A stretch of 1,812 nucleotides of DNA, taken from the NCBI RefSeq assembly GCF_003334255.1, contig NZ_QOWU01000148.1. One strand, given 5' to 3'. The notes under the pieces were generated by a model, which saw only the letters and a program-made list of their open reading frames with translations, searched no databases and had not been told where the DNA came from. Of this stretch, positions 2 to 1,812 are shown one piece after another. Position 1 is the stretch's first letter, and each line of letters opens with the position of its first letter. Both the position numbers and the translations under genes were made by a program. The stretch is from Escherichia coli (GTDB lineage: Bacteria > Pseudomonadota > Gammaproteobacteria > Enterobacterales > Enterobacteriaceae).

Positions 2-1812
2 AAGCACAAACGCGAGAATCCGCCCACGGTGGTATCGGAAGCCATGGCAGAACTTCGCGCCCTGCCCTCGTTTCTTGCCAGTCCGCTCATCCGGGACCTG
101 GCTCGCCTGAGCCGCAAACAGGAGAGCGCACGCCGGGAAGGGCTTAAGAATAACAGCGCATATGCGGCGGATAACTTCGTTCGTCATGGGCTGCGTGCCC
201 GCCTGAAACGTATCGCCCGTGTGAATGAACGCTTTGCCACCCCGGCCTTTAAGGCCACCGCCGCCCGCGAACGGCTGGATGAACTGCTTATACTGCCGCA
301 GCTGAGCCGTGACGAAATCCAGCACCTTGCCACCCTGACCGCCACCGCGTTTTCCGCCGCACTGGAGCGCGCATGTGATGAGATCATCGAAAAGACCGGC
401 AGGGGTGACGATGACCTGTTCACCTGGTTACTGACCTACCAGTCACTGGCACACATGGCGTTAAAACTGGGTATCACGCCACCCTGCTGGCCGTCGCTGG
501 AAATCAGGCCAGACCGCCGCACCGCCCCCAACCCGGAACGGGTGCCGGGTGCGGTCATGCGCCTTTCCTGTGCGACATGGTGGAACAGTCAGTTAAGACA
601 CCTCCGGGACATCTGGCGTGAAGAGCTGTTACGCGCCGCAGGTCTGGTGTCACGTAAGACATCGGTATATATCAGCCATGAAGCGTTACTGGACTGGCGC
701 GAAAAACGCCAGCGCACCCGCGATTTTCTGAAGGCCTGGGACATCGAGAACGAAGAGGGAGAACGGTTCAGCCTTGAGGATATCTACTGGGCAGGTCTCT
801 CTAATCCGCGTAACCGCCGTAACGAGATGATGACCTGCGCCCGGGGAATGGAGCAGGTCGCCGAAGCACGCGGCGACGTGGCGTTTTTCGTCACCGTCAC
901 AGCCCCTTCCCGTTTTCACAGCGTGAACGATGACGGCAGTCTGAACCCGAAATACTGCGGGGCAACGGTACGCGATGCCAGTGATTATCTGGTTTACCGC
1001 TTTTTCGCCGCCGTCCGCAGGGCCATCGACAAGGCCGGGCTGGGCTGGTACGGCGTGCGCACAGTGGAGCCCCACCACGACGGTACACCGCACTGGCACA
1101 TGCTGGTATTCACCAGCCAGGAAAACGAAGCCCGTATCACTGAAATCATGCGCAACGCCGCCATCAGGGAGGACCGCGCAGAGCTGGGTGATGATATCTC
1201 CCCGCGTTTTAAATGCGAAAAAATCGACCCGGCAAAAGGCACACCGACAAGCTATATCGCGACCTATATCGGTAAGAACCTGGACGCCAGCGCCTTCATG
1301 GGAAATGACCCGAAAACCGGCAAACCTTACATCGATAAGGAATCAGGCAAAACCATGGCCGAAACCGTGGAGAACGCCATCGGCTGGGCAGGCCTTCACC
1401 GCATCCACCAGTTCCAGTTCTTCGGTATCCCGCCCCGCCAGGTATGGCGCGAACTCCGCCGCCTTGCCGGGCAGATGGCCCGTAACCCGACTGCCCCACA
1501 GCGTCTGGACCATGACGACATTGACGCCATACTGGCCGCCGCCGACGTGGGATGTTTTGCCACCTATATCACCCGCCAGGGTGGTGTGCTCATTCCCCGC
1601 AACACGTACCTGGTCCGCACCGCATACGAAACTGCCGAAGAGGCCAACGACTACGGCGAATTCCCGCAACGCATTTACGGCGTCCGCGCCCCGTTACTCG
1701 GGGAGCGCTACACCATATGCACCCACCCGGACACCTGGAAACTGGTCAGAAAAGAAGCGAAAGCCGACAACAGCACGGACGAGGATTTTGACGTTGGGGG
1801 CGGCTTCGCCGC
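2..1812 (+). CDS. Replication initiation protein, rolling-circle HUH nicking endonuclease of the phage P2 gpA / 186 A family ('replication endonuclease'); partial, open at the 3' end and probably at the 5' end
   Basis: Seen in sequence: frame 2 is open for 603 consecutive codons with no stop (manual translation begins KHKRENPPTVVSEAMAELRALP and ends TDEDFDVGGGFA). It contains, in canonical order, motif 1 FFVTVTAP (881-907), the HUH motif HWHMLVF (1091-1111) and the paired-tyrosine motif YIATYIGK (1253-1276). Every ORF in the supplied track overlaps this frame on the other strand or in another frame. Established knowledge: this motif order with a Y-x-x-x-Y catalytic pair is characteristic of superfamily I rolling-circle initiators (phiX174 gpA, P2 gpA). 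Inference: P2 gpA is ~760 aa with the catalytic tyrosines around residue 450 (from memory); the pair here is at window codons 418/422, so the true start is likely a few tens of codons upstream and the stop a few hundred nt downstream. An in-frame ATG at 44-46 is a possible but unproven start. Confidence 0.9.
1091..1111 (+). other. HUH metal-binding motif (His-hydrophobic-His followed by hydrophobic residues) within the replication initiator CDS
   Basis: Codons cac tgg cac atg ctg gta ttc translate to H-W-H-M-L-V-F in the CDS frame, preceded by EPHHDGTP. The position between motif 1 and the tyrosine motif matches the canonical layout of rolling-circle Rep proteins. Confidence 0.75.
1253..1267 (+). 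other. Paired catalytic tyrosine motif (Y-x-x-x-Y) of the rolling-circle initiator
   Basis: Codons tat atc gcg acc tat translate to Y-I-A-T-Y, followed by I-G-K-N. Two tyrosines separated by three residues and followed by a lysine two residues later match the phiX174 gpA / P2 gpA active-site arrangement (established knowledge; alignment not run). Confidence 0.7.

Follow-up and report, generated by a model that had tools for sequence, protein, structure and literature searches.

The window, i.e. the whole stretch of 1,812 nt that was analysed, is the middle of a P2-family rolling-circle initiator gene, which encodes a nuclease of the HUH/two-tyrosine type. Only frame +2 was open over all 1812 nt; the other frames were interrupted. 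The window protein matched the Pfam family Phage_GPA (PF05840) with an E-value of 2.9e-106 over the full model (positions 1-320 of 321), and the original prediction that the stretch codes for a homologue of the A protein of P2 and 186 was thus borne out. For the closest E. coli copy (locus L001), the full-length protein matched phrog_91 ('nicking at origin of replication') with an E-value of 2.8e-234. A search of the protein against NCBIfam returned 0 family matches, and a sequence search of the PDB returned 0 relatives with a solved structure. Both the HUH motif and the Y-x-x-x-Y tyrosine pair of the Phage_GPA module were present in the window protein. Gene A of P2 belongs to the same protein family and carries the same two motifs; its counterpart of the tyrosine motif reads YIAKYISKN, with tyrosines 450 and 454. 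Variants of the HUH motif (TVHWH) were present among A-gene relatives. A study of the 'two active-site tyrosines' is cited in PMC3986222. The features of the locus are given in window positions, those beyond 1812 as window-equivalent positions:

1-1812, + strand: internal fragment of a P2 gpA-type replication endonuclease gene, frame +2; both gene ends lie outside the window.
1067-1102, + strand: HUH metal-binding motif EPHHDGTPHWHM, invariant in the alignment of P2, 186 and L001.
1253-1279, + strand: YIATYIGKN, Y-x-x-x-Y motif with the two catalytic tyrosines, aligned with Y450/Y454 of P2 A.
1786-1796, + strand: TTTTGACGTTG / TTGACGTT box, codons F-D-V, conserved left flank of the origin (covariance-model positions 1-11).
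1800-1812, + strand: GC hairpin GCGGC-TTC-GCCGC, stem 1800-1804 / 1808-1812, loop 1805-1807, supported by covariation.
1813-1839, + strand, outside the window: nick core (A)CCTTG^GACTCGTGGCAATAACTGTC, from 11 contigs and L001 and by gapless alignment to P2 position 29892.

Of 5426 complete E. coli genomes, 62 gave a megablast match to the window, on the chromosome every time, and these copies were annotated as 'replication endonuclease'. L001 (E. coli DETEC-S792, NZ_CP116067), the closest copy, was 98.8% identical to the window. Its CDS (5744..8257, 837 aa, RefSeq 'replication endonuclease') sits within a P2-like prophage, with DUF4761/DUF4754 early genes and portal, large terminase and GPO scaffold genes as neighbours. 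The window corresponds to L001 5998-7809 and the CDS spans window-equivalent positions -253 to +2260; judged from L001, the gene starts 253 nt 5' of the window and stops 448 nt past its end. The closest isolated phages were Peduoviridae with merely 68-70% nucleotide identity. The window was mosaic, being 99.5% identical to L001 until approximately position 1750 and identical to a second lineage, loci L004-L007, from 1736 on.

Reference origins were taken from annotated phage records. In P2, a rep_origin feature ('nick site at ori') is annotated at 29892, within gene A (28034-30319); the nick-site sequence is AGCGGCATCGCCGCGCCTCG^GAGTCCTGTCAATAACTGT, with the cut context CCTCG^GAGTCCTGTCAATAACTGT. 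The exact phosphodiester bond in P2 was taken from GenBank annotations for P2 and PM2 and from secondary citations. The PM2 record gives the cleavage site as AAGCTTG^CAGAGTTCACAATAAAT with a spacing of 10 nt from cut to AATAA, as in P2, and a P2 cut after G29892 is consistent with this spacing. The 186 record places the origin at 28576 inside A, assigned by similarity to P2, and the sequence at this position is GGGCGCTTCTGCGCCCTCTCGGAGTTCTGTCAATAACTGT. In P2 and 186, A acts preferentially in cis, a property known from genetics. From the literature, gpA of P2 is known to cut the ori strand and to become covalently bound to its 5' end. According to PMC8537503 and PMC3986222, gpA of P2 nicks an ori located within its own ORF, the nick-site sequence is conserved among Peduovirinae, and a P2-like nick site is conserved within the gpA homologue of the Vibrio phages PV94 and K139 and of Salinivibrio Smhb1. 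The comparisons consulted in these two papers (PMC3986222, PMC8537503) aligned the nick core alone; the sequences compared included neither this E. coli lineage nor the Xuanwuvirus, Felsduovirus and Kapieceevirus records, whose entries lack a rep_origin feature.

The 3' end of the window reads ...TTTTGACGTTGGGGGCGGCTTCGCCGC. The homologous stretch of L001 reads GCGGCTTTGCCGC up to the position of the window's final base and ACCTTGGACTCGTGGCAATAACTGTCC after it. What follows base 1812 was taken from relatives and not from the contig of the window itself; it was ACCTTGGACTCGTGGCAATAACTGTC in 11 of 11 contigs. These were seven metagenome contigs carrying the last 71 nt of the window as an exact match (0 genome contigs carried it) and four viral contigs carrying the last 32 nt; none was identical to the window.

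Alignment with the ori regions of P2 and 186, which had been suggested as a check, gave a gapless match at syntenic codons, in which P2 GCCGCGCCTCGGAGTCCTGTCAATAACTGT was aligned with GCCGCACCTTGGACTCGTGGCAATAACTGT of this lineage; the corresponding peptides are AAPRSPVNNC and AAPWTRGNNC. The nick is predicted between window-equivalent positions 1818 and 1819 (ACCTTG^GAC; L001 7815/7816), 6 nt past the window, and ACCTTGGACTCGTGGCAATAACTGT is the predicted cleavage substrate of this lineage's A protein. The strand nicked and the exact bond are those expected when the annotations of P2 and PM2 are carried over. The relative position of the origin in the gene was 0.82 here and 0.81 in P2. A homologue of the P2 nick site was found inside the A gene of every relative examined, in agreement with the claim that the origin lies inside the A gene as in P2 and 186; the ori homologue mapped within the gene, and the nick site was conserved across relatives. 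The other location that had been considered, downstream of the coding sequence, did not hold, as the CDS continues for approximately 440 nt past the predicted nick. The interval originally given for the origin, 1100-1812, was correct for 27 of its 713 nt: positions 1786-1812 form the left flank of the origin, 1100-1785 is free of origin signal, and the core lies past 1812.

Further searches were made within and around the window. A degenerate nick-core pattern gave 0 matches in the window with up to 3 mismatches allowed. The covariance model described below scored in the window only at 1786-1812 (positions 1-27 of the 58 in the model, truncated by the 3' end of the window), and with filters off only the hairpin at 1800-1812 scored. 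A search for iteron-like repeats across window-equivalent positions 1003-2403 gave only short two-copy matches at chance level. GC skew, another of the suggested checks, was uninformative: in the related complete phage P88, the cumulative skew showed no extremum at the core (7993); its minimum was at 33377, and the curve appears to track gene orientation.

The origins of P2 and 186 differ from that of this lineage in several respects. P2 has the same layout, in which the core is preceded by a GC hairpin with 5 bp in the stem and 3 nt in the loop. Within the core region, 25 of 30 bases are identical to this lineage, including CAATAACTGT, and 5 of 30 differ; the P2 core is TCGGAGTCCTGTC, compared with TTGGACTCGTGGC here, and the peptide is PRSPV in P2 and PWTRG here. 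The proteins are 32% identical, and the C-terminal tail differs. In 186, the origin is likewise inside A, its core belongs to the same family, and a hairpin (GGGCGC-TTCT-GCGCCC) lies just 5' of the core. The core of 186 is of the P2 type (TCGGAGTTCTGTC), the loop has 4 nt, the hairpin lies in a different codon phase, and the protein is 34% identical. P2 and 186 thus have the core TCGGAGTYCTGTC, whereas this lineage has TTGGACTCGTGGC. Intermediate cores were found in SI7 (TTGGAGTTCTGTC), in a Burkholderia phage (TTGGACTCGTGTC) and in Mannheimia and Pasteurella phages (TTGGACTTGTGTCAGTAAC). The Rep protein P12 of PM2 (gene XII) is related to P2 A (tblastn, E 3e-58). In PM2 the annotated site lies towards the 5' end of the gene, and the syntenic 3' position holds another P2-like site, a weaker one of 29 bits.

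Constraint on the core was analysed with 80 A-gene loci drawn from IMG/VR, whose products share 37-95% amino-acid identity with L001, and with 12 annotated phages. The 26-nt core CCTTGGACTCGTGGCAATAACTGTCC was nucleotide-identical in almost every sequence of the clade with the peptide APWTRGNNCP, although the proteins have an overall amino-acid identity to L001 of only 37-50%. A codon alignment of 19 representatives with less than 90% amino-acid identity was used to determine the fraction of sequence pairs with the same codon, given the same amino acid. This fraction was 0.52 +/- 0.10 per 10 codons along the gene, with a sole peak in the whole gene at window-equivalent positions 1760-1880. It was 0.75 at 1760-1789, 0.81 at 1790-1819 and 0.94 at 1820-1849, and reached its maximum of 0.99 in the 9-codon window 1814-1840. 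Across 1100-1760 it stayed at 0.44-0.67, and no other constrained element was present in the interval originally given. An exact scan of IMG/VR for the 24-nt core gave at least 120 loci. Among the core matches listed (n=120), 106 fell within A ORFs that carry the HUH motif upstream of the core, 9 were truncated by the locus end, 4 were in frameshifted A genes, and in one (L127, IMGVR_UViG_2671180868_000008) the A ORF passes through the core in another reading frame. The A ORF of L127 is intact and homologous on both sides of the core, and the identical 24 nt are read as SLGLVAITVP instead of PWTRGNNCP. The constraint therefore acts on the DNA and not on the peptide: L127 is a natural experiment which shows that the DNA was kept rather than the peptide. 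As judged from these alignments, the origin site is under selection as a DNA cis element and not only as codons. The dual constraint on coding sequence and cis element that had been anticipated was thus recovered, both in the same-codon fraction (0.94-0.99 compared with 0.52) and in the frame change of L127.

Two other readings of the frozen stretch were considered. It could be kept since the peptide APWTRGNNCP is essential, with the DNA not a cis-acting site. The clade does show a near-invariant peptide, of which NNC is retained unchanged even by P2 and 186, but an essential peptide does not account for the freezing of synonymous positions as well (0.99 against 0.52 gene-wide), nor for the different reading frame in L127. 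Moreover, the annotated P2 nick maps exactly onto the frozen stretch, and the protein sequence beside it is poorly conserved, with an amino-acid identity of approximately 0.2-0.3; an essential peptide as the sole cause is regarded as very improbable. The functional origin could also lie elsewhere, in 1100-1785 or in non-coding DNA downstream of the gene, with the core as a relic. The PM2 cleavage site, annotated in the 5' part of the rep gene, shows that the position can differ in distant relatives. However, 1100-1785 was devoid of synonymous constraint, of any core-like match and of any covariance-model match, and no iteron-like repeats were seen in the region searched. A relic would not remain nucleotide-invariant among genes whose products share only 37-50% amino-acid identity with L001, and an origin at another place is considered very improbable. 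The intragenic origin at the core is retained as the preferred reading.

The left flank of this origin lies in the window and consists of the box and the GC hairpin. The box sequence TTGAC(G/C)TT was found at the same offset in 186, PSP3, YenM56.17, Kp4871, SEN4, L014, L051 and others; it is common to many lineages and not universal. The constraint on the box at 1786-1796 may be on the protein or on the DNA. A GC hairpin with a stem of 5-7 bp and a loop of 3-4 nt was present directly 5' of the core in every lineage:

L001: GTGCGGC-TTT-GCCGCAC
P2: GCGGC-ATC-GCCGC
YenM56.17: GCGCC-TCT-GGCGC
Kp4871: GGCCGC-GCA-GCGGCC
186: AGGGCGC-TTCT-GCGCCCT
L036: GGGCGAC-CCC-GTCGCCC
SI7: CGTCGCC-AACC-GGCGACG
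Mannheimia phage: GGGGAG-CTTG-CTCCCC

In the window, the 3' arm of the hairpin ends 6 nt before the predicted nick. Across lineages this distance was 4-6 nt, with 8 nt in a Burkholderia phage. The peptides encoded at the hairpin differ (GGFAA, SGIAA, SASGA, GASAP, GACAP, GRAAA, GDPVA, PSPTGDA), and the codon phase of the stem varies between lineages; one conserved peptide therefore does not account for the pairing. Only 2.3% of the positions in these genes had a perfect hairpin with 5 bp or more 1-5 nt upstream.

When all origin variants were aligned without gaps by MAFFT, the stems fell out of register; an in-register subset of nine sequences and a covariance-model alignment were used instead. 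In the nine in-register sequences, the five inner pairs were paired in 9 of 9, three pairs were changed on both sides, and 0 of 500 shuffles reached the covariation score. In each of 44 loci, the covariance model built from these nine sequences gave a single site on the forward strand, with scores of 29-74 bits. Every site fell towards the 3' end of its A gene, including those of K139 (K139/Kappa, 67 bits) and of Burkholderia, Mannheimia and Pasteurella phages. In the model-fitted alignment of 41 distinct sequences, which leans towards structure, 92.6% of the cells paired and 7 of 7 pairs had double changes; slid controls fell to 30-77% paired, and 0 of 500 shuffles reached the score. Folding of the origin strand also predicted the hairpin, with z-values of -1.3, -0.7 and -2.6 that are not significant alone. 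As the folding energy by itself is unremarkable, the case for the hairpin rests on covariation. The hairpin lacks a T-run and is therefore not a terminator. Across Peduoviridae, a conserved inverted repeat near the cut is thus kept by compensatory change. No mention of the covarying hairpin was found in the literature covered; the primary P2 ori papers lay outside this coverage.

The hairpin is proposed as an origin recognition or extrusion element, and by analogy with relaxases and other HUH nucleases its most likely role would be recognition of the site or assistance in making it single-stranded. Alternatively, the hairpin at 1800-1812 might be no origin element at all but a side effect of Gly (GGC) and Ala (GCC) codon use or an mRNA structure. 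GGC and GCC are reverse complements, and many variants encode G-G-x-A-A, from which GGC GGC nnn GCC GCC follows automatically; the unexceptional folding energy fits this as well. A codon by-product would nevertheless not be expected to persist as the peptides change, yet the stems do so, with Gly/Ala swaps and Asp/Val pairs that retain complementarity. Changes on both sides of 7 of 7 pairs, the lower pairing of the slid controls (30-77%) and a distance to the nick fixed at 4-6 nt (8 nt in the Burkholderia phage), at a chance of 2.3% per position, likewise speak against it. An origin of the hairpin in codon usage or mRNA folding is considered unlikely, although it retains appreciable weight. 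A function of the hairpin in the origin is preferred. The stronger proposal, that the hairpin is required in all P2-family origins, for gpA recognition or for exposing the nick site, and co-determines specificity together with the two core variants, is put forward tentatively and at somewhat less than even odds.

Conjugative relaxases such as R388 TrwC and F TraI are HUH/tyrosine nucleases that read an inverted repeat located a few nt to the 5' side of nic. A hairpin a few nt 5' of the cut is used for recognition by relaxases and by other HUH nucleases. On paper, the relaxase nic sites would resemble the origin described here in the HUH nuclease, the paired tyrosines and the hairpin 4-8 nt 5' of the cut. 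They differ in that the origin here serves vegetative rolling-circle replication and is embedded in the gene of its own nuclease.

Taken together, the window probably belongs to the initiator gene of a P2-like enterobacterial prophage with an intragenic rolling-circle origin, located approximately 82% along the gene and homologous to the origins of P2 and 186; a probability of about 0.88 is assigned to this reading. On the sense strand, the origin would consist, from 5' to 3', of the TTGACGTT box, the short GC hairpin, 1-3 nt, and the core CCTTG^GACTCGTGGCAATAACTGT. The window would hold the box and the hairpin (1786-1812) and stop 6 nt short of the predicted nick. By homology with P2, the A protein would cut the origin strand at TTG^GAC once this is single-stranded, a state that would arise from supercoiling, possibly aided by extrusion or binding of the hairpin. 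One of the two tyrosines encoded at 1253-1267 would link the protein to the 5' end, and the 3'-OH would then be extended by host helicase and polymerase in rolling-circle mode. After one round, the regenerated site would be cleaved by the second tyrosine. The nick chemistry and the strand cut in this lineage would be as expected by homology with P2, and cis-action of A would be expected by analogy with P2 and 186; the part played by the hairpin is a proposal.

The intragenic arrangement of the nick site has already been described for Peduoviridae and is ordinary biology, and the significance of the result beyond annotation is small. The records of P88, SEN8 and ST11-OXA245phi3.1, isolates with this core variant, contain no rep_origin feature. 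The result places the origin to the base in common, unstudied P2-like prophages of E. coli, Klebsiella and Salmonella, and it is a clean case of an intragenic cis element that dictates the peptide encoded there (APWTRGNNCP). Through the covarying hairpin and the two core variants, origin choice by gpA becomes open to simple tests, with possible uses in the construction of P2-type mini-replicons and in the prediction of cross-replication between co-resident prophages.

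Between the window and L001, the closest E. coli prophage copy (NZ_CP116067), 8 mismatches were counted in positions 1-1750 and 16 in positions 1751-1812. From position 1736 to its end, the window is identical to the L004-L007 lineage, to which it is 80% identical elsewhere. The window is a mosaic, and its recombination joint at 1736-1750 precedes the predicted nick by approximately 70-80 nt. The following features were located in the window and in the comparison loci:

Window 1800-1812 and the equivalent place in L001-L099: short GC hairpin, immediately 5' of the nick core
L127 (IMGVR_UViG_2671180868_000008), site region 560-660: A-like ORF 59..1000, with A homology on both sides of the site
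L098 (PM2) 1789/1790: cleavage position annotated in the PM2 record, towards the 5' end of gene XII
L098 (PM2) 3015-3072: second P2-like site CCCCTTGGAGCACTGAAAATAACTGT, detected with the origin covariance model (29 bits, weak hairpin)
L227 (phage P88) 8856-10131: ParM-like and partition genes, directly downstream of the A gene

The GC hairpin is preserved by compensatory changes across the Peduoviridae, and the amino acids encoded there vary. No description of this covarying hairpin 5' of the nick core was found in a limited literature search. The A protein 3' of the origin (window-equivalent 1850-2260; L001 7850-8257) is very poorly conserved, with an amino-acid identity per 10 codons of about 0.13-0.43, compared to 0.5-0.95 upstream. 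The conserved nuclease body of A gives way to a variable C-terminal tail at the origin.

In four viral contigs (L170, L173, L200 and L211), the exact core lies within an A frame that is broken upstream, and the HUH motif is absent from the core-bearing ORF. These may be A pseudogenes keeping an intact origin, or sequencing frameshifts. The L127 ORF carries an identical 24-nt origin core read in a different frame, encoding SLGLVAITVP instead of PWTRGNNCP; its upstream hairpin comprises 3 bp only. This frame change reflects either two frameshifts that compensate each other or an error of assembly.

The second PM2 site, CCCCTTGGAGCACTGAAAATAACTGT, occupies the 3' position that is syntenic with P2. 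The ParM-like and partition genes of P88 hint at plasmid-like maintenance in this P2-like phage.

Core variants were grouped using loci L088-L097, L002 and L003:

TCGGAGTYCTGTC: P2, 186, PSP3, SEN4, K139, Kp4871 and YenM56.17
TTGGACTCGTGGC: window clade, Felsduovirus SEN8, Kapieceevirus and Xuanwuvirus P88
Intermediate cores: SI7, Burkholderia SBP8, and Mannheimia and Pasteurella phages

The occurrence of two core variants together with intermediates suggests that origin specificity changed stepwise.
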